The notes beneath the pieces are model-generated. The model was given only the letters and a program-made list of their open reading frames with translations. It was not told the DNA's origin and made no database searches. From positions 450,172 through 514,171 of the forward strand of contig OY970358.1 of the NCBI GenBank assembly GCA_963718575.1: a stretch of 64,000 nucleotides of DNA, given 5' to 3'. This stretch comes from an uncultured bacterium. Lineage in GTDB: Bacteria; Patescibacteriota; Minisyncoccia; UBA6257; 2-01-FULL-56-20. Positions 12,396 through 20,805 of this stretch are shown here, piece after piece (within the stretch, counting starts at the first letter, position 1; every line of letters begins with the position of its first letter). The position numbers and the translations under genes were made by a program.

Positions 12396-12514
12396 GAGGA
12401 GAATAGGTAGTGTCTTTGGATGTGCCCACTGTCCCGGACAGCGAACGAAATTCGAATCTGGTTTATGAGTAAAACCTGAACGATTGATTTTTAAACTGCT
12501 TAAATAAAAACTTT

Positions 12515-13090
12515 TTAATAAATTTCGCTCTTAGTATCTCCATGAATCAATTCTTGATTTTTAAAAATTTCCTCTTGTACCACTTGCAATGCTTGTTCAG
12601 TTTTAAAAGATCCACTTGACCCAGAAGGAAAGTCCGGGTCGCTACCGAAGACATCGACGCCTATCTCAGCATTGACAATCATGTAATGTACCATTTCTTC
12701 GTTGGTAATAGAATTCCGAAAGCTTATACGAATACAATAATAGAGATTCGACGTATCAGCCGTTAAGGAATTCTGCCAATTTTCTATTTTAAAATCGGGT
12801 TTCAGATCGACTCTCAAACTAGCTCCCGGATTCAAAGCCACAAATGAAGATCCATTCCCGCCAGGGGCGTTATATAGACCCATTGGATTGCTGGTGCTTA
12901 TTGGAGAATTAATTACATATGCTGACACCCGTATATATCCATTGTTAATCGGAACTAAGCCTAAATTCTTTATGGTTAAAATCTTTGATGTTGGATCTAC
13001 TGCCATATCCAGCACTACCCTTGAGTTAAGCTGACTCGACAGGGATTGTTGAATAATAAATATCAATATAAAAATAGCTAAGCTTTCCAT
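12515..13090 (-). CDS. Hypothetical secreted protein in an AT-rich segment
   Basis: 191 aa, N-terminal hydrophobic signal-like segment. Local GC is much lower than the flanks (12400-13340). Confidence 0.45.
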   Translation of the reverse strand: MESLAIFILIFIIQQSLSSQLNSRVVLDMAVDPTSKILTIKNLGLVPINNGYIRVSAYVINSPISTSNPMGLYNAPGGNGSSFVALNPGASLRVDLKPDFKIENWQNSLTADTSNLYYCIRISFRNSITNEEMVHYMIVNAEIGVDVFGSDPDFPSGSSGSFKTEQALQVVQEEIFKNQELIHGDTKSEIY

Positions 13091-13363
13091 AAAGAATCCC
13101 CAGAACGAACATGGTATATATATATTATTTTTTTCTCATATTTTTGTAATATTTTTCCAAAAGAAAAAATTAAAATCGCAACCATTCCGGAAGCCCAAAA
13201 CCACCAAGGAATAATTTCTAAATGCATAGAAAAGCGAGAATTAATCTCTTTGTCAGAAAAAGCATTCTATAAATCTTAACAGAATTTCCGCCCTTTCTAT
13301 ATATTTACCATACTTACCCTCTGTGTCCTGGGCAGAATTTGAGCCCAATCTCCTTATCACTCC

Positions 13364-13497
13364 CTTCGCTTTTGCAAGGGTGTGTCCTGAGGTTTTCGGG
13401 GCATTCCGGAGGTGCGAAGGCGCCGAGGCTTAGCGATTTTCCAGCAGGAAAATACGCGGCCCCGAAAACCTCAGGACACACCCTTGCAAAAGCGAAG
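13364..13497. repeat. Hairpin element E2: perfect 38-bp inverted repeat (13364-13401 / 13460-13497) around a 58-nt loop carrying TTCCGGAGGTGCGAAGGCGCCGAGGC
   Basis: Arms cttcgcttttgcaagggtgtgtcctgaggttttcgggg / reverse complement. The loop holds ggtgc-GAAG-gcgcc and ttttcc-AGCA-ggaaaa. Same architecture and loop motif as E1, with completely different stem sequences. Confidence 0.8.
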
Positions 13498-13518: not shown

Positions 13519-14613
13519 ATGCCACAAACAGAAGATCCGAAGGCGACCACCATCGCACAGGCGCTGAAAACCGAGATATCGACCACCGACTGGCCAAAGG
13601 AGGGCAGCGTTGTTGAAGTCACGCTTTTAAAGCGCCTCCCCCGCAAAGCCTACTTTGATATGGGCCGCTTTGGCACCGGCATCGTGTTCGGTGCAGAGAT
13701 CGCGAATGCGCGCGAAGCGTTGCGCACCCTAAAGCCCGGCGATTCGCTCCAGGCGAAGATCGTCGTCCTCGACGGCGAGGAAGGACACATCGAGCTCTCG
13801 CTCTCCGAAGCCGGCAAGCAAAAACTCTGGGCGCTCGCCAAGGATTATGCGGAATCGGGCGAAGTGATCAAGGCAAAGATCGTTGCCGCGAACGCGGGCG
13901 GGCTCATGACCGTCGTCGCGGATGACCTCAAGGCGTTCCTTCCCGTGTCTCAGCTTTCACTTGAACACTATCCGAAGGTTCCGGACGGCGACCGCATCAA
14001 GATCGCGGAAGAGTTGAAAAAGTTCGTCGGCCAGGAATTGAACGTCAAGATCATCGACGTCAACCCTCGCACGAATAAAGTGATCGTCTCCGAGCGCGAA
14101 GTGCTTTCCGCAAACGTCAAAGAATTGCTCGCCGCATACACGATCGGCCAGGTCATTGACGTGATGGTCTCCGGCACCGCCGACTTCGGCGTGTTCGTCC
14201 GCTTCACCGACAATCCGCAGATCGAGGGCATGATCCACATCTCCGAGCTGGATTACAAGTTGATCGACAACCCTAAGGAGCTCGTCAAAGTGAACGATCC
14301 GTTGAAAGCAAAAATTATTGATATCAAAGAAGGCCGCGTCTTCCTTTCGCTCAAAGCGCTCAAGGAAGATCCGTGGGTCAAAGCCGGCGACAAGTTCAAA
14401 CCGGGCGAGACCGTCCAGGGCAAAGTCTATAAGTTCAATCCGTTCGGCGCGGTCGTCGCGCTCGACGGCGACCTCCAAGGCATGGTGCACATCTCCGAAT
14501 TCGGCGGCCAGGACGAGATGAAGAAAGCGCTCACCGTCGGCGAGACCTATCCGTTCGTCATTGACACCGTAAAGCAGGAAGAGAAGCGGATCACGTTGAA
14601 GACGAAGAAATAA
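13519..14613 (+). CDS. rpsA: 30S ribosomal protein S1-like protein (four S1 domains, short form)
   Basis: Repeated S1 OB-fold units (GSVVEVTLLK...; GEVIKAKIVAANAGGLMTVV; GQVIDVMVSGTADFGVFVRF; GETVQGKVYKFNPFGAVVAL). The ORF track's start at 13339 would read through the E2 hairpin. MPQTED at 13519 is the likely start. Confidence 0.8.
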   Translation: MPQTEDPKATTIAQALKTEISTTDWPKEGSVVEVTLLKRLPRKAYFDMGRFGTGIVFGAEIANAREALRTLKPGDSLQAKIVVLDGEEGHIELSLSEAGKQKLWALAKDYAESGEVIKAKIVAANAGGLMTVVADDLKAFLPVSQLSLEHYPKVPDGDRIKIAEELKKFVGQELNVKIIDVNPRTNKVIVSEREVLSANVKELLAAYTIGQVIDVMVSGTADFGVFVRFTDNPQIEGMIHISELDYKLIDNPKELVKVNDPLKAKIIDIKEGRVFLSLKALKEDPWVKAGDKFKPGETVQGKVYKFNPFGAVVALDGDLQGMVHISEFGGQDEMKKALTVGETYPFVIDTVKQEEKRITLKTKK

Positions 14614-14631
14614 AAATGGCCCTTTGGGGCT

Positions 14632-14662
14632 ATTTTTTTATCTTTACTTTCGGGTGGAAATC
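14632..14662 (+). terminator. Weak intrinsic terminator candidate after rpsA
   Basis: gccc-tttg-gggc followed by TATTTTTTTAT. Short stem. Confidence 0.35.
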
Positions 14663-14692
14663 CGATATTCTAAGACCTGAATTCAGCACTAT

Positions 14693-14763
14693 GCCGCGAT
14701 AGCTCAATGGTAGAGCACTCGCCTGAAGAGCGAGCTAAGTGAGTTCGATTCTCTCTCGCGGCA
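14693..14763 (+). tRNA. tRNA-Phe (anticodon GAA)
   Basis: Cloverleaf: acceptor GCCGCGA/TCGCGGC, D-arm GCTC-AATGGTA-GAGC, anticodon arm CTCGC-CTGAAGA-GCGAG, T-loop TTCGATT (one T.T mismatch in the T-stem), discriminator A, no encoded CCA. Confidence 0.8.
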
Positions 14764-16276
14764 CAAGAGTAGAAACTAGATTTTTTTCAGAAAAATTTTT
14801 GCGCGATGCGCACAGCGCATCGTTAGGTGGGGTGGGGGTAACGACGAGAGAACGGGAAGAAAGAAAGAGGGTCGAGCCGAAGAATTTTTTTGCCGAGAGT
14901 TTTTTCTGCGTGAGGGTGGGGGCAAGAGCGGTTTCCGTCAGATTTTCTGCGTCTTTTATCCACTCTCTTAGGGGTTCGAGCCAAGCGACCTGTCCTTTTT
15001 GCAAAGAGGCCATTTCTTCCTCCAGCCCCTTCTTGCGGAGAAGAAGCACCGACCTCTGTTCTTGGTATTGCTCTTTGCCGATGCTCTCCTCCAACCGGAC
15101 TTCGAGCAGGATGCTTAGCTTCTTCTCAATGGCCGATATTTCGCCTCTCGTCGCTTGGCTCGCGGCGGCGGACGACTGGATGGCCTCCTGTTCGTCCTTG
15201 TCCGCCATCCTGTTCAATTCCGCCGCCCAATCATGGGGCAAGGCGTATTGGGTCATAATATCTGAAAGCTCGGCTGACAACGCTTCCTCTCGGATGAAGG
15301 GTTGGGAGCAAGTGCCCTTCTTCTTCGTGCATCGGTAGTAGGTGTAGGTATGGACGTTCCCGTTCTTCTGATGCTTGGTCTTTGTTTCGGCCGTGATGCT
15401 CATGCCGCACTCGCCGCAACGCAACAGGCCGCAAAGAGGGCTTGCGTTATTCTCCGGCTCATGGCGCGGTCGGCTTCGCTCTTTCAAAACCTCCTGTACT
15501 TTATCAAAAAGTTTCTTCGAGATGAGCGGCGGATGCTTGCCCTCATATAACTCTCCGGCGTAGCGGAACATACCGATATAGAAGGGGTTGGTGAGAATGG
15601 CTTTCACTTGGTCGCGCTTCAACGGCTTGCCGCCTCCGCCACTCCATCGCTTCGTTGCTCTCGTCTTGATGCCGTGGTTGAAAAGAAACATCGACAAATC
15701 CTCCAAGTGGGATTTGTTCTCGGCGGTAAGTTCAAACAGCTTTACCAAAACAGGAGCTTCGCGCCTGTCCCTTACGACGAGTTTGCGGGCTACATCGTTC
15801 ATATATCCGGGCGGGGCAACCGAAGGATACTCGCCCCGTTTGGCTTTCTCGTGTAGGCCGCGCTTGGTATTCGCGCTCAAGTCGCGGACATATTGGGTAG
15901 CCGCCGCGAACTCAACCGACATGAGAAGCCCGTTGTCCTCGGACTGATAGTCGTGCTCATAGGTGCGGACTTGCTGTATCGTGCCGATTTGGTGAAGCCA
16001 TCGTATTTTCCCGTCGTCCCACGGATTGCGGGCTAACCTGTCGAGTTTCCAACATAAAATACCCTGCGCCTCGCCCCGTTCAATCCTCTCTATCATCTGA
16101 TTGAAGACGGGGCGGCCGGGTTTCTTCGCCGTCTCCTTCTCGGTGAACTCGTGAATGATGCTAAGTCCTTCTTGCTTGGCTAAGGCTCGCAACACGGAAA
16201 GTTGGTCTTCGATAGAGCGTATCTGCCTGTCTTCGGCTTCGGATGATTTGCGGGCGTAGAGGAAATATGAGGTCAT
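14735..16276 (-). CDS. Large serine recombinase (resolvase/invertase catalytic domain + recombinase domain + zinc ribbon)
   Basis: MTSYFLYARKSSEAEDRQIRSIEDQ (catalytic Ser region), ...KLDRLARN..., a Cys-rich CGLLRCGECG...YYRCTKKKGTC zinc ribbon and a C-terminal coiled coil. The 3' end overlaps the tRNA-Phe 3' end. Start taken at MTSYF (16276); ORF track start 16348. Confidence 0.85.
   Translation of the reverse strand: MTSYFLYARKSSEAEDRQIRSIEDQLSVLRALAKQEGLSIIHEFTEKETAKKPGRPVFNQMIERIERGEAQGILCWKLDRLARNPWDDGKIRWLHQIGTIQQVRTYEHDYQSEDNGLLMSVEFAAATQYVRDLSANTKRGLHEKAKRGEYPSVAPPGYMNDVARKLVVRDRREAPVLVKLFELTAENKSHLEDLSMFLFNHGIKTRATKRWSGGGGKPLKRDQVKAILTNPFYIGMFRYAGELYEGKHPPLISKKLFDKVQEVLKERSRPRHEPENNASPLCGLLRCGECGMSITAETKTKHQKNGNVHTYTYYRCTKKKGTCSQPFIREEALSAELSDIMTQYALPHDWAAELNRMADKDEQEAIQSSAAASQATRGEISAIEKKLSILLEVRLEESIGKEQYQEQRSVLLLRKKGLEEEMASLQKGQVAWLEPLREWIKDAENLTETALAPTLTQKKLSAKKFFGSTLFLSSRSLVVTPTPPNDALCASRKNFSEKNLVSTLVPRERIELT
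14762..14935. repeat. IR1-left: 174-bp arm, exact reverse complement of 19343-19516
   Basis: Checked base by base at both ends and in the middle. Begins 2 nt inside the 3' end of tRNA-Phe and contains the last ~57 codons of the serine recombinase. Confidence 0.9.
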
Positions 16277-16333
16277 GCAATAAGTGTATCCCATCTTGGG
16301 ATATGCCGCAAGAGGATATACGATTAAGTTGAA

Positions 16334-16546
16334 ATGACGAACGTTCAAGCAAAAGACTATAGGGATTTTCTAAAACGTCTCCGTAAAGCCCGTGAAGAAG
16401 TTGGGCTACTACAATCCGATGTCGCCAAGAAGCTTGGAAAACCACAATCTTATATTTCAAAAGTGGAATCGGGAGAACGGCGTATTGATTTCATAGAGTT
16501 GAAAAAACTTTCGATGATTTACAAGAAAAAACTAGATTTTTTCTAA
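16334..16546 (+). CDS. XRE-family helix-turn-helix transcriptional regulator (Cro/CI-like)
   Basis: 70 aa; LLQSDVAKKLGKPQSYISKVESGERRIDFIELKKL is a classic HTH_XRE. Divergent from the recombinase gene with a 57-bp shared control region. Confidence 0.8.
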   Translation: MTNVQAKDYRDFLKRLRKAREEVGLLQSDVAKKLGKPQSYISKVESGERRIDFIELKKLSMIYKKKLDFF

Positions 16547-16555
16547 AACCAATTC

Positions 16556-17386
16556 CTATACTCTTGCTCCCGTTAGGTTTGCGCTTTCGTATCGCCGCAC
16601 ACCCTTTCGCAAAACCCAAAGCGCGACGAAAAACCATGCCGCCGCCAACGCCCAGATTAAAGCGACTTCTGCGACGTTGATATTTTTAACTGCTTCTATA
16701 GGTAAGCCGCCAACGGCTATGCTTGGGATAATAAAAATAAAAATAAAACGAATTACTCCTTGGTACACCCCCGAAGGGTAAAGACTTGGGCCGACCAGTA
16801 TATCAAAGGCGTCGTCCGAAAGTTGCGCGGAATCGGGGAGATAAAACGAGATACAGGAAGCCATCAGTGCAAAATTTATAAATATCGTCGTTGCGGGGAT
16901 GATAAGTGAAATTAGCAAAATAATCTGCACAAGCGATGCGTGCGTTATGTAGGTATATATGGCAAAAAGAATAATACCAAATATCGTGTCCCCGATGGCA
17001 CTTGTCATTGTCGTTGTCGTCAAAATTCGCAAATAGAGATTTTTCGGCGTAAGAAGAATTGAGTCAAAAGTTCCATTATTAACAAAAGAATCCAAGTTGT
17101 TTGCGCCGTAACAAAACGAGAACGCAAGTCCGAAAGTTATTGCAACAAAACCTTGCAATCCTATAACCTCTACGCCCGACCAGCCGTTAATAGTCCCAAA
17201 GGCCTTAAAGAACAACAACCAAACCACCACGAACGCAAAATTATTTACAACCATTCCAACGACCTGCATGAGAAAGGAAAACCGAAGTTCCGCCGCCGCC
17301 ATGAGATTTATTTTAATATAGCGACCAGCAACGGAAAGCTCGGAAATAAATTTCTGAAAGGTCGTTTTTTTGGCAAATTTTCTCAT
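16556..17386 (-). CDS. ABC-2 family transporter permease
   Basis: 276 aa, six predicted TM helices, second of two paralogous permeases downstream of the ATPase. Confidence 0.7.
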   Translation of the reverse strand: MRKFAKKTTFQKFISELSVAGRYIKINLMAAAELRFSFLMQVVGMVVNNFAFVVVWLLFFKAFGTINGWSGVEVIGLQGFVAITFGLAFSFCYGANNLDSFVNNGTFDSILLTPKNLYLRILTTTTMTSAIGDTIFGIILFAIYTYITHASLVQIILLISLIIPATTIFINFALMASCISFYLPDSAQLSDDAFDILVGPSLYPSGVYQGVIRFIFIFIIPSIAVGGLPIEAVKNINVAEVALIWALAAAWFFVALWVLRKGVRRYESANLTGARV

Positions 17387-17390
17387 GGCA

Positions 17391-18221
17391 TTATCCTCCG
17401 TTTATCGACAATTTCCTTTGCGCCCTTTGGAAAACAATCTTGATGAGTATGAAAAAGAAAATTACCCAAAAAAGTTGGGCGACAAGCAATAACGGCCATT
17501 GCGACAAAAAGGTGGGGTTGAACATCTGCGTTGCAAACATTGGTGCACCAAAAGGGGTGAAATTAGCAAAAGTTTGAAAAGAAGACGGGAGAAGTGCGAG
17601 CGGAACATATGCTCCTCCAAAAATGAGAATCGCTTTATCAACAATCCAAAAAAACGGTCGGGAATCGTTAATCCACAAAGAAGGTAGTGCAATCAAAATA
17701 TAAAGCCCTGCCGACACCATCGTTCCGGCGGCCGCAAGGAGTAAGGCATATAAAAGACGCGGGAACGAGGCCGAGCTTGGAAAGCCGTGCGTAAAAAGTA
17801 ACAAAATCGGTATGACAACAGCCGCACTCACCAGAAAACTTAGTAACCCCTTGCCAAACTGTTCCCAAAATTTATAAGCGACATACGAATAAGGTTTGTT
17901 GATTTGCAATTCTAGCGTACCTTTCCGCGCTTCTTCGTCAATGGTTTTGAAAACACCTCTGAATTGCATATATAGGAGCAGGTGATAAACCGCGATACTC
18001 CAAACCGCTATCGCCGCATCAACGCCGTTTATGTCTTGGCCGATGTAATGGAAGGCGTAGGTATATATAGCAAGCAATATAAGAATACGAAACGGAACGA
18101 GAATAGCACTCGTTTGAAGTTTCTTGGGATAGTACAAGGTCTCCTTTATGGAAAGGCGATATATAAAAAGATATTTTGAGGCCTGACTAAGCCAGCTACG
18201 ATTAGCTATCCTTATGTTCAT
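17391..18221 (-). CDS. ABC-2 family transporter permease
   Basis: 276 aa, six predicted TM helices. Overlaps the ATPase gene end by 20 nt (translational coupling). Confidence 0.7.
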   Translation of the reverse strand: MNIRIANRSWLSQASKYLFIYRLSIKETLYYPKKLQTSAILVPFRILILLAIYTYAFHYIGQDINGVDAAIAVWSIAVYHLLLYMQFRGVFKTIDEEARKGTLELQINKPYSYVAYKFWEQFGKGLLSFLVSAAVVIPILLLFTHGFPSSASFPRLLYALLLAAAGTMVSAGLYILIALPSLWINDSRPFFWIVDKAILIFGGAYVPLALLPSSFQTFANFTPFGAPMFATQMFNPTFLSQWPLLLVAQLFWVIFFFILIKIVFQRAQRKLSINGG

Positions 18222-19194
18222 AAATTTTTCCGATAACCTCCTCTAGCGGCGGGTCTTCGATGGTAATGTCTTGAATATCCTTGCCGTGAATTACGTCTTT
18301 GAGCACCTCGTCTATCGAAGTGATGCTGGTATCAACAGTAAATTTGACTCCGCCACCTTTATTTTTGAGGATGTCGATGCCAGCAGGCATCTCTTTCACG
18401 TCAAGCTTATCTTTTTCCCCGAGAGCAATACGGACTACTTTCTTATTGAGATATTTTCTCTTGAGATTAGATGTCTTGTCATCGAAAATTATCTTGCCTT
18501 GATTGACGATGATTGTTCTGTCGCACAGCGTTTCAATATCGCCAGCGTCATGCGAAGTCAAAAAAATGGTGGTCTTGAGGTTTTTGTTTATGGATTTCAA
18601 ATTCTCTCGCAACTTTCGTTTTGCTACAATATCAAGCCCGATGGTCGGCTCATCAAGAAATACAATCGGCGGTTCGTGGATGAGTGCCACGGCGATTTCC
18701 GCCCTCATCCGTTGTCCCAACGATAACTTTCGCACGGGTTGGTCAAAAATCTCTGCAAGGTCAAAAAGCTCAATGAGTTTCTCTCGCTGTGTCGTATATT
18801 GTGTTGTTTCAACTTCGTATACCTTGGCGAACAAATCAAATGAATCCCTAATGGGGAGATTAAAAATCAACTGCGAACGCTGACCGAATACCGTACCGAT
18901 GTTAAGTGCTAATTCTTTTCTATCTTTTTGAGGATTGAGTCCAAGAACTGATGCGTTGCCGGAAGTTGGCGACAGTATACCCGTAAGCATCTTTATAGTC
19001 GTTGATTTACCCGCTCCATTCGGGCCGATAAATGCCAGCGACTCGCCTTCAAAAGCAGAGAATGAAATGTCATCAACTGCGGTTATAGAACGGGTTTGCG
19101 GCGAAAAAAGATTTTTAAGAAAACCACTCTTTTGGTCTTTCACGGGAAACACAAAAACTTTTGTAAGATGCCGCACTTCAACAGCTTTTTCCAT
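18202..19194 (-). CDS. ABC transporter ATP-binding protein
   Basis: Walker A GPNGAGKST, signature LSLGQRMR, Walker B IVFLDEPTIGLD, H-loop. 330 aa. Confidence 0.85.
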   Translation of the reverse strand: MEKAVEVRHLTKVFVFPVKDQKSGFLKNLFSPQTRSITAVDDISFSAFEGESLAFIGPNGAGKSTTIKMLTGILSPTSGNASVLGLNPQKDRKELALNIGTVFGQRSQLIFNLPIRDSFDLFAKVYEVETTQYTTQREKLIELFDLAEIFDQPVRKLSLGQRMRAEIAVALIHEPPIVFLDEPTIGLDIVAKRKLRENLKSINKNLKTTIFLTSHDAGDIETLCDRTIIVNQGKIIFDDKTSNLKRKYLNKKVVRIALGEKDKLDVKEMPAGIDILKNKGGGVKFTVDTSITSIDEVLKDVIHGKDIQDITIEDPPLEEVIGKIYEHKDS

Positions 19195-19342
19195 ATCCCA
19201 TAATTGTATGGCTTTTTATCGCTTCTTGCCACCTTCAAAGTTCTTCAAGGGAGTTTGCCGACGCTTCGTCGGCAAAAAATAAGATTGTTCAATACTGCGC
19301 GCGCGGTTTGGGTGGGGAAGCAGTATTGTCCGCTAGTAAATC

Positions 19343-19516
19343 GAAACCGCTCTTGCCCCCACCCTCACGCAGAAAAAACTCTCGGCAAAAAAATTCTTCG
19401 GCTCGACCCTCTTTCTTTCTTCCCGTTCTCTCGTCGTTACCCCCACCCCACCTAACGATGCGCTGTGCGCATCGCGCAAAAATTTTTCTGAAAAAAATCT
19501 AGTTTCTACTCTTGTG
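19343..19516. repeat. IR1-right (partner of 14762-14935)
   Basis: Exact reverse complement of IR1-left. Confidence 0.9.
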
Positions 19517-19698
19517 AGTTTGTATCAGTCGGCTCGCAACCATTTTAGCCGAAATCAATGAGTTTTGACACCCCGCAGGGTAGTCGTTAGGGGGGTCGTT
19601 ACGCAACGACTACCCCTACCCACCCGAAGGGCTGATGGATACTGACTTTCTTCCTTCTCGCCGCCTCATTTTGGTTGCTGACATATATGACTTTTCGC
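19514..19698. repeat. IR2-left: ~185-bp arm, exact reverse complement of 20206-20389; abuts IR1-right with a 3-nt overlap (GTG)
   Basis: Boundaries and interior verified. Contains the internal palindrome gggtagtcgtt...aacgactaccc. Confidence 0.85.
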
Positions 19699-19937
19699 CA
19701 TGCAAAACCTTTCATCCATTTCCCTTACCCCTCCGTCCCTCGGAAGACCTCGGGACTTCGGGGGCGGCCGTGCTCGGCCGCATCAGGCCCTCGGCTTCCC
19801 GCTCTCCGTGCCGCAGTCGGTTTTGTATACGCGCTGGGGGGATAAAAAGATTATCGAAGATACAATAAATAAGACAAGCTCATGGCCGCATGGCCGAGGA
19901 GCGCGTCAGCCGCGAAAAATGGGCTTGCATAATTTGG

Positions 19938-20228
19938 TCAGGCAAACCATTTTTCGATTTTGGTTTCCACTTCTAATCTTGGTTGCGCGAAACGCTCTCG
20001 TGATACCCGTATGACATTCTCCATTGTTGCCTCGTCGCCGTTCAAGGCGATGGGCGGGAGCGTTTCCGCCGTGAATGGCTTGCTCCGCTTCCCGTCTATC
20101 ATCAATTTTGTATAAAATTGGTAGTTCTCCGTATGCCCCATGTCCTCGCTCCCGAACTCCGGCTTGAACTCCTCCGCAAGCTCTTTGGCGTCCAACGAGC
20201 CGACCCGAAAAGTCATATATGTCAGCAA
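19938..20228 (-). CDS. Hypothetical protein (96 aa) in the ~0.5-kb unique core between the IR2 arms
   Basis: ORF mostly in unique sequence 19699-20205. No motif recognised. ORFs 19635..19868(+) and 19906..20268(-) start with the same residues because they start inside the two IR2 arms. Confidence 0.3.
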   Translation of the reverse strand: MLTYMTFRVGSLDAKELAEEFKPEFGSEDMGHTENYQFYTKLMIDGKRSKPFTAETLPPIALNGDEATMENVIRVSRERFAQPRLEVETKIEKWFA

Positions 20229-20389
20229 CCAAAATGAGGCGGCGAGAAGGAAGAAAGTCAGTATCCATCAGCCCTTCGGGTGGGTAGGGGTAGTCGTTGC
20301 GTAACGACCCCCCTAACGACTACCCTGCGGGGTGTCAAAACTCATTGATTTCGGCTAAAATGGTTGCGAGCCGACTGATACAAACTCAC
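20206..20389. repeat. IR2-right (partner of 19514-19698)
   Basis: Exact reverse complement of IR2-left. Confidence 0.85.
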
Positions 20390-20805
20390 CACCGTAATAA
20401 TCTTCGGTATAATTAAAAATGGAAATTCTGGATAAAACGATAGGAGCGGAATGGATCGAAGCCATGATTGGTTATATAAAGACCCATCGGTCAAAGTAAG
20501 AGTTCATTGACGTTCTTGGAGCTCCGCAAAACTCTCTCGAAGCAACGAACGTCGAGTTAAAACCAAAGAATCCTGCCATCAATTCGATCGTCCTCTCATC
20601 GAACGCGATCACCCTCAATATGATCCCGAAAAAATTTCACCGGGGAGAAAACGCTTCGAACCAAGATAACCGCATCACCGCTTATCGCACGGAAGTTGAG
20701 GACGTCACCATTCAATCGATCATACACCTTGGGATTTTCCCTCCGAGCGGTTTCGTTGACGAAGTGGATATCCTCTTTTATTAGCCGAACATTTATTTTT
20801 TTGTG

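Follow-up and report, generated by a model that had tools for sequence, protein, structure and literature searches.

A large serine recombinase island at tRNA-Phe of a Patescibacteria bacterium that probably holds its attP site twice, in opposite orientations

The island and its genes

We analysed a stretch of 64,000 nt (hereafter the window) from an uncultured bacterium of the candidate phyla radiation (CPR; Patescibacteria), part of contig OY970358.1 of assembly GCA_963718575.1. In this small-genome bacterium the 3' end of a tRNA-Phe gene is the site of an integrated island of 5.6 kb (14762-20389), which carries a large serine recombinase and two nested pairs of long inverted repeats. The tRNA-Phe(GAA) gene lies on the plus strand, at 14693-14764 according to ARAGORN and at 14693-14763 according to the Rfam tRNA model (68 bits), and stays intact after the insertion; the Rfam scan found tRNAs alone. 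The GC content of the cargo is 0.41-0.45, compared with 0.55-0.60 in the surroundings.

The first repeat pair (A) consists of arm a' (14762-14935, plus strand), which begins 2-3 nt inside tRNA-Phe, and of an internal copy, arm A (19343-19516, plus strand), the two being 100% complementary over all 174 nt. The second pair (B), formed by the internal arm B (19514-19697, plus strand) and by arm b' (20206-20389, plus strand), is exact over 184 nt and encloses the 508-nt core of segment 2 (19698-20205). Arms A and B overlap by 3 nt, GTG, at 19514-19516. An initial annotation, made from the sequence of the window, had described this arrangement closely: the exact 174-nt A pair, its start 2 nt inside the tRNA, the 3-nt overlap and a core of 0.5 kb all stand. 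The B pair was rightly called an exact inverted repeat, but at 185 nt, ending at 19698, it had been given one base too many. A B pair of 191 nt at 98%, returned by a repeat tool, is spurious, with 7 extra bases that match poorly. There are no further copies of either arm in the 64-kb window, and perfect repeats this long cannot have arisen by chance.

The recombinase (Int; 14735-16276, minus strand, 513 aa, identical to P0001) has the Pfam domains Resolvase (PF00239), Recombinase (PF07508) and Zn_ribbon_recom (PF13408), all of which exceed the Pfam cut-offs. Its codons 448-505 lie within the A arm, in agreement with the annotated figure of about 57, and its last 8 codons run into tRNA-Phe. Divergent from int is a helix-turn-helix regulator of the XRE type (16334-16546, plus strand; Pfam HTH_3, E = 3e-15), followed by the cargo proper, an AT-rich ABC-2 transporter operon on the minus strand (16556-19194). 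According to both Pfam and NCBIfam it encodes a DrrA-like ABC-2 ATPase (18202-19194) and two ABC-2 permeases (17391-18221 and 16556-17386). These assignments, including the AT-rich cargo, had been made correctly in the initial annotation, and so had a 96-aa open reading frame (ORF) in segment 2 (19938-20228, minus strand). About 100 nt of spacer (19241-19342) separate the operon from the second A copy. That copy repeats int codons 448-505 without a promoter; as read from the sequence, stop codons occur just upstream and there is no in-frame start, so that it is not a gene.

Attachment sites

Three sites of the island, all given here on the plus strand, have a 3-nt core in common, CAC (GTG at the second). 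S1 (14762-14764) reads ..TCGCGG-CAC-AAGAGTAGA.. from the tRNA into arm a'. S2 (19514-19516) reads ..TCTACTCTT-GTG-AGTTTGTATC.. from arm A into arm B. S3 (20387-20389) reads ..ATACAAACT-CAC-CACCGTAAT.. from arm b' into the flank, its left side ending in CAAACT. The reverse complement of 19480-19550, around S2, equals the left half of S3 followed by the right half of S1. Because of this relationship we regard S1 as the left (attL) and S3 as the right (attR) attachment site of an integrated element, and S2 as an intact, inverted copy of the element's own site (attP). The reverse complement of S2 would then be the attP that excision is predicted to regenerate, and each of the long inverted-repeat pairs appears to be one half of attP present twice. 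There are two nested pairs because the A half of the internal attP is the arm of attL and its B half the arm of attR. Arm a' would thus hold the P' half of attP together with the last 58 arm-encoded int codons, and arm B the P half-site, b' (19514-19548), in which a GTTGCGAGC motif resembles the T-loop; the second P half-site is in arm b' (20355-20390). The borders formed by attL, attP and attR support the annotated link of an integrative element with tRNA-Phe and the serine recombinase. The initial annotation had also considered the repeats far longer than ordinary att sites or terminal inverted repeats (TIRs). This is true of their length; as halves of attP held twice, they are not an oversized TIR or inversion site.

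When the sequence to the left of S1 is connected with that to the right of S3, the result is ..TCGCGGCA-CCA-CCG, that is, tRNA-Phe with an encoded CCA, a form (GGCACCA) seen in 17 of 46 relatives having the same tRNA 3' half. The attachment site also determines how the recombinase ends. In translation, the integrated int ORF crosses the site and ends in ..STLV-PRERIELT, with its stop codon inside the tRNA, and the same frame read across S2 ends in ..STLV-SLYQSARNHFSRNQ and a stop.

The three-site pattern is common to six relatives, in which the cores of 4-6 nt lie at the discriminator/CCA end of Leu, Asn and Glu tRNAs. Throughout the family the b' half-site follows the consensus TAAAAT-RR-GTTCGAGC, about 16 nt and then the core, and a profile of it (nhmmer) finds it beside the internal A copy in about 45 loci. 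This half-site resembles the T-loop of a tRNA but lies 4 nt more distant from the core: in six loci the distance from the T-loop-like TCGA to the core is 20-21 nt in b' and 16-17 nt in the tRNA. An offset of such a kind between the half-site motifs of attP and attB is expected of serine integrases, and in structures of the A118/LI integrases the zinc-ribbon domain reportedly binds about 5 bp farther out on attP than on attB. The island therefore combines the domain set of an integrase, a short shared core that restores the target and an offset of the motif between attP and attB, which are the marks of an integrase-type element.

The arms also contain signal-like sequences, which match the consensus only and are not more frequent than in shuffled sequence. 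In the B arms a promoter-like GTGTCA-18-TAAAAT (19571-19542 on the minus strand, 20332-20361 on the plus strand) reads across the core; at S2 it points into the internal A copy and the ABC operon, and at S3 into the host flank. The A arms hold a terminator-like hairpin in the int sense (14800-14814 and 19464-19478), upstream of the int stop codon.

A recombinase family with an inherited layout

The recombinase belongs to a large family, with 4962 proteins at E <= 1e-20 among the candidates scored and at least 574 recombinase loci among the first 598 pattern matches listed (185,579 species genomes). In the best 80 genome loci it is found almost solely in metagenome-assembled genomes (MAGs) of Patescibacteria. 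The nearest solved structures, both distant matches, are the SPbeta and A118 integrases. Int is distantly related to SprA of SPbeta, A118 Int, XisF and Ccr, and no annotated phage or plasmid gene exceeds 30% identity to it. In a protein-profile scan of IMG/VR the best match reached 35% identity; the family is not catalogued as viral.

Counts given below refer to 83 recombinase loci unless another number is stated. In at least 60 of them the 3' end of int adjoins a tRNA gene of the opposite strand. Fourteen isotypes are targeted (Leu, Ile, Val, Thr, Tyr, Arg, Ser, Ala, Lys, Glu, Gly, Asn, Gln and Phe), and the C-termini of the homologues run into the T-arms as GIEP, GLEPT or RIELT. A search of related genomes for the repeats and the recombinase showed that in about 60 loci the last 110-190 nt of int recur in inverted orientation, 1.5-7.4 kb upstream (mostly 1.5-6.5 kb); in most of the others the flank is too short. 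The full nested layout is present in seven loci, the window and L009, L010, L038, L039, L040 and L072, always in the order outer B arm, segment 2, inner B arm, inner A copy, cargo, int, outer A arm, tRNA. In these relatives the overlaps of the arms are cores of 4-6 nt (CCACAA, CACA, GAGCA, TCACCA), and two of the loci, L010 and L072, lie on complete chromosomes (OY970175 and OY970354). In L003, whose int is 75% identical and sits at tRNA-Leu, the repeat border falls within int at the same position as in the window, and the 100 nt past the second A copy are conserved as well. The layout is an inherited hallmark of a large, Patescibacteria-specific recombinase family.

The arms show concerted evolution. 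Over their outer 100 nt the two A arms of a locus are 93-100% identical (100% in 10 of the 15 loci measured), and the same region is 74-92% identical between the closest pairs of loci. In 11 loci (L020, L030, L039, L040, L043, L046, L051, L055, L057, L062 and L066) the outer 105-115 nt are perfect, after which about 10 inserted nt (7-12 nt; TTTGAATTTT or a similar sequence) interrupt a GGC/TCGAACC motif of the internal copy, and the inner ~45 nt have diverged. As the internal copies have this type-specific insertion in common, the duplication must be old. We infer from the concerted evolution that the att-proximal part of the arms has been homogenised repeatedly, presumably by gene conversion; in the window the homogenised region spans all 174 nt of the A arm. 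The interrupted motif, a further T-loop-like sequence (GGTTCGAGC), lies about 105-115 nt from the core, where the perfect identity of the arms ends on the inner side.

In the relatives, the principal place for cargo is segment 2. It holds an Mrr nuclease and a TPR protein in L010, SNF2/PLD helicases in L046 and L051, and NgoPII with a methylase in L067; L063 has large genes similar to the L046/L051 helicases, a likeness seen without a domain scan. In L034 there is a full-length coupling ATPase of 922 aa (domains DUF87, TrwB and TraG-D_C), and a 909-aa gene of L036 is like it, again without a domain scan. The islands also carry a possible reverse transcriptase, judging by its N-terminal sequence alone.

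The coupling ATPases explain the 96-aa ORF of the window (P0124), whose first 8 codons lie inside the arm of the B pair. Pfam and NCBIfam give no match to the ORF itself, and its TraG-D_C origin is seen via longer homologues carrying PF12696. It aligns with the last ~90 residues of TraG/VirD4-type coupling ATPases (E = 1e-14 against the 922-aa protein of L034). The coupling-ATPase genes of L034 and the window are 24% identical, and we do not rely on their opposite orientation in L034. Similar stumps occur at the same place beside S2 in L029 and L057. An intact small gene or a directionality factor, considered for this ORF, was rejected because of the alignment to the C-termini of full-length coupling ATPases. 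Since the ORF is a stump of such a gene, the copy in the window is a degenerate, reduced derivative, with segment 2 down to 508 nt. Apart from this stump, no transfer gene was recognised in the copy of the window with Pfam and NCBIfam, and the island is therefore not classed as an integrative conjugative or mobilizable element.

Two further observations concern multiple and irregular copies. A Doudnabacteria MAG (MFD04434.bin.1.36) has at least four members of the family, at tRNA-Glu-TTC (L022), tRNA-Glu-CTC (L034), tRNA-Leu-CAG (L036) and, for L024, with no tRNA nearby. In L024 (CAWINB010000004.1; 5098-5596, 9368-9471 and 14172-14546) b'-like sequences flank both A arms and the B-arm partner is found 4.7 kb downstream of int, as in a rearranged or non-standard copy.

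Empty site and surroundings

If the island was inserted at S1/S3, the empty site is predicted to have the junction ..TCTCTCGCGGCAC joined to CACCGTAATAATC. A search with the 3' end of tRNA-Phe as query returned 46 loci, none of which has the exact right flank of this species. The closest approach to an empty site is L098 (JGI Ga0265338_10000688), which is syntenic with the window: its gene for ribosomal protein S1 is 87% and its right flank 75-90% identical. Here tRNA-Phe is followed by a 36-nt terminator and tRNA-Arg, and the window has 6.03 kb between the same two tRNAs. An invariant 21-mer, CACAAGAGTAGAAACTAGATT, had 0 matches in the genome, viral and metagenome collections, which are sets without the source lineage.

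Other sequences were met at the same tRNA. In L135 (1525-1568; S1 gene 79% identical) tRNA-Phe continues into ACAAGAGGTATAC.., resembling arm a', and the contig stops 20 nt farther on; this may be another family member. L096, L100 and L140, from other CPR genomes, hold two direct copies of the same tRNA-Phe 3' end 1379 nt apart, which suggests a different type of island with direct repeats at tRNA-Phe. Between attR and tRNA-Arg the window has a stretch of 415 nt (20390-20804), absent from L098, that was possibly left over when an earlier insertion occupied this tRNA. On the other side of the island, an AT-rich stretch (12400-13300; GC 0.36-0.39, with ~0.58 around it) with a 191-aa ORF on the minus strand (12515-13090; no Pfam match) is possibly of foreign origin as well. 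The 5' end of the S1 gene carries a perfect 39-nt inverted repeat (13364-13402 / 13459-13497, 56-nt spacer), which is present in other assemblies of this strain as well.

Proposed life cycle

Based on these observations, we consider it likely that the locus is a serine-integrase island at tRNA-Phe in which attP is held twice, in opposite orientations, and that this state has been inherited across the family. As suggested by the anatomy of the sites, Int would pair attP (half-sites b' and a' around CAC) with an attB at the tRNA end, whose B half-site would have been the T-arm and the 3' strand of the acceptor stem. Strand exchange at the core would leave attL (14762-14764) and attR (20387-20389) and an intact tRNA. 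Integration through one attP would leave the other inside the island as A-GTG-B (19514-19516). By the same logic, the free circle would consist of two unique segments between two inverted attP regions, as in the yeast 2-micron plasmid. Gene conversion, to judge from the concerted evolution, would keep the arms identical. Each segment could invert between its arms, or the element could integrate via either attP.

A number of points weigh against this scheme. To our knowledge, canonical serine integrases, as exemplified by the work on phiC31, do not recombine attP with attP, attL or attR, and the retention of a second attP is left unexplained. Among the ORFs of the window Pfam and NCBIfam reveal no replication gene (Rep or origin-type protein) and no candidate directionality factor, the latter being too diverse a class of proteins to be excluded in this way. 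No free circular form, recombination event or exact empty site of this species was found in the collections searched. L098 also lacks the 415 nt beyond attR, so that the right boundary is set by attachment-site logic alone. An attR-type copy of b' was not found in about 11 relatives with 2-7 kb of flank (blastn-short, repeat scan and nhmmer profile); in these, segment 2 may exceed the flank, since large defence genes fill it, or attR may have been lost. Finally, the internal site of L003 (2418-2438) lacks the usual b' and has in its place 21 nt that match exactly the 3' end of tRNA-Leu, the target of this element, at the spacing of a tRNA. Gene conversion may have crossed the core there, or the internal attP may have captured DNA.

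Alternative explanations

Perfect inverted repeats longer than the assembly k-mer are a classic source of misjoins, and several short-read contigs indeed stop in or near the arms, so a foldback or a chimeric assembly path had to be considered; the initial annotation had likewise allowed for a chimera with collapsed repeats. Nevertheless, we regard such an artefact as scarcely credible and have rejected it. A contig of 276 kb (contig_32193 of ENA ERZ25039484) has the same layout with 0 differences over 14600-20500, including the exact recombinase; it is colinear with the window over 4747-26261, and all 208 differences fall in host genes. Its naming and its frameshifted host genes suggest a long-read assembly. 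Four further assemblies contain parts of the same element at 99.9-100% identity, and the S2 junction is found also in JGI 3300041431. Moreover, the layout recurs in the two complete chromosomes and in other long contigs of relatives, whose arms have diverged and have copy-specific indels, and the spacers contain real, non-palindromic genes. As to where contigs end, some ends lie off the repeat borders (window position 18396 for L002, 16094 for L148, 20304 and 19599 for L144 and L145), and two contigs from different samples both stop exactly 99 nt into a B arm. A different possibility is that two independent cassettes stand in tandem, one with int (a' to A) and one non-autonomous (B to b'), whose circular forms would each contain a palindromic joint. 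Either segment does have a repeat pair of its own at its ends, the pairs simply abut, and in many relatives only the A pair is within reach. On the other hand, b' always stands beside the internal A copy, no locus has A joined straight to host DNA, and none has more than two units bounded by repeats. The joint would need palindromic cores, which these are not, and non-canonical pairs of sites would have to recombine; there is neither a DDE transposase nor a direct target duplication. Two cassettes are hence very improbable. A DDE/TIR transposon or a miniature inverted-repeat element (MITE) was also rejected, the serine recombinase being the sole mobility gene and the flanks of the repeat pairs not being direct duplicates.

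It might also be argued that the island is a programmed switch, in which Int flips the 4.4-kb segment and the 0.5-kb core to toggle int, the ABC operon or the small ORF, similar to the inverton or shufflon proposed in the initial annotation. Inverted recombinase sites do border both segments, and the promoter-like site in b' reads across the core. In L148 (ERZ27250077), a 100% identical element, tRNA-Phe and a' run into the ATPase end of the cargo, so that segment 1 appears flipped, and the 508-nt core is flipped in the likewise identical L144 (ERZ27250077) and L143 (JGI 3300041431); L145, L001 and L002 have the orientation of the window. In L060 and L016 the tRNA stands beside the fragment copy and int points away, the host flank of L060 being syntenic with that of L075 but inverted relative to int, and in L031 and L059 the 3' end of int abuts b'. 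However, the flipped contigs are all short-read assemblies with arms (174/184 nt) longer than k (141/127), for which the assembly graph is the same in both orientations. For this reason L148, L143, L144, L060, L016, L031 and L059 do not prove inversion; L143 alone has some weight, if it was resolved with read pairs. In all ten relatives of long-read type with the repeat (L001, L009, L010, L022, L023, L029, L034, L036, L055 and L072) int stands next to the tRNA, in L022 facing a tRNA 3' fragment; in these assemblies the arrangement is a conserved and static feature, the outcome that the initial annotation had set against its switch. Furthermore, the 513-aa Int is a large serine recombinase of the integrase type, a Hin-type invertase having been rejected on its length and domains, and the outer halves differ among the three sites, which are thus not equivalent inversion sites. 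Inverting segment 1 would change just the last 8-14 codons of int, and a flip of the small core changes nothing obvious, both B arms carrying identical inward-reading starts. The structure allows inversion, and concerted evolution implies recombination between the arms, so that occasional flipping is possible; a switch seems to us quite unlikely. In L031 (1550-7615), where int meets b' in the attP configuration, a 3.7-kb block lies downstream and inverted, compared with its place upstream of int in L020 and L057. The second attP could finally be a neutral relic, an ancestral inverted duplication kept by ordinary gene conversion with no role in the life cycle. This would fit the internal A copy without a start codon, its frameshifting insertion of ~10 nt in most relatives, an arm identity down to 74-92% in some loci and the static orientation in assemblies of long-read type. 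Yet the copy has been kept in about 60 of 83 loci, in streamlined genomes and with integrases down to ~46% identity, the adjacent b' half-site is conserved family-wide, and many independent loci show perfect identity of the arms over the outer 105-115 nt. We therefore hold a relic to be unlikely.

Implications

Returning to the serine-integrase island with two attP sites, it is tempting to speculate that a large and undescribed family of Patescibacteria islands uses the twin inverted attP as a functional principle of its design, and does not just carry it as a relic, although at present this is a rather doubtful proposition. If true, the twin attP would enable a serine-integrase element to do what its canonical counterparts cannot. 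Candidates are a two-module flip-flop, integration via either site, re-mobilisation without a separate directionality factor, or the rebuilding of a duplex attP in natural transformation, when incoming single-stranded DNA folds back on itself. The family would also point to reading of the tRNA T-loop by the zinc ribbon, which would explain retargeting to ~14 tRNA isotypes. An integrase that reads the conserved T-loop and crosses over at the discriminator/CCA end would be of interest both for integrase biology and for genome engineering, to which it would offer many natural, predictable tRNA landing sites. If functional, the spare inverted attP bears on the control of direction and orientation in serine-integrase elements. 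Apart from mechanism, little is known of gene movement in tiny-genome CPR bacteria, and the family appears to be one of its main island vehicles, carrying restriction-modification, SNF2/PLD helicases, Mrr nucleases and transporters. It is also worth pointing out that short-read CPR assemblies next to tRNA genes are systematically broken or scrambled by these repeats. In the literature searched, which we covered incompletely so that a prior description is possible, we found neither this family nor a naturally occurring inverted or twin attP described.

Comparison with known systems

The closest counterparts of the island are the phage-type serine integrases. Like phiC31, Bxb1, A118/LI and SPbeta SprA, Int joins resolvase and recombinase domains to a zinc ribbon with a coiled-coil insert. 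As with these enzymes, the common core is short (3-6 nt) with no long direct repeats, the half-site motif lies farther from the centre in attP than in attB, and int is located beside attP. In contrast to them, Int is only ~25-30% identical to any annotated integrase, the island targets the last nucleotides of many different tRNA genes, its attP lies within the 3' end of int, and there is a second, inverted attP. An attP within the integrase gene is found in the Myxococcus phage Mx8 (intP/intX) and in fuselloviruses of the SSV1 type, which use tyrosine recombinases. There too integration alters the end of the integrase ORF, as it does here from SLYQSARNHFSRNQ to PRERIELT, but these elements have no spare inverted copy of the site.

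Long inverted repeats that hold a recombination site are best known from the yeast 2-micron plasmid, with Flp and FRT in repeats of 599 bp, and from the inc18 plasmid pSM19035, with the beta recombinase and its six sites. Both are autonomous replicons in which inversion serves copy-number amplification or resolution. The island, seen in its integrated form and presumed to form a circle, likewise has its target site twice in long inverted repeats that part two unique segments. The likeness is one of geometry only: the island is chromosomal, no replication gene was found and its isomers are putative. The invertases Hin, Gin, Cin and Pin are proteins of ~190 aa that act on 26-bp sites with the help of an enhancer and Fis, and Rci of the R64 shufflon is a tyrosine recombinase. 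As in those systems, inverted recombination sites flank segments beside the recombinase gene. The island differs in its enzyme, an integrase of 513 aa, and in its sites, which are hybrids (attL/attP/attR) whose outer halves are not alike.

As a genomic island, the element is reminiscent of Islander-type islands and tycheposons, which are also small islands with cargo or defence genes at tRNA 3' ends, several per genome at different tRNAs. Those islands mostly use tyrosine integrases (tyrosine recombinases in 910 of 937 tycheposons) and have a direct repeat of the 3' part of the tRNA, while here 3-6 nt are shared and the repeats are inverted. In sum, the element works like a phage-type serine-integrase island, but differs in the targeting of tRNA 3' ends, in an attP inside the end of int and in a spare, inverted attP.

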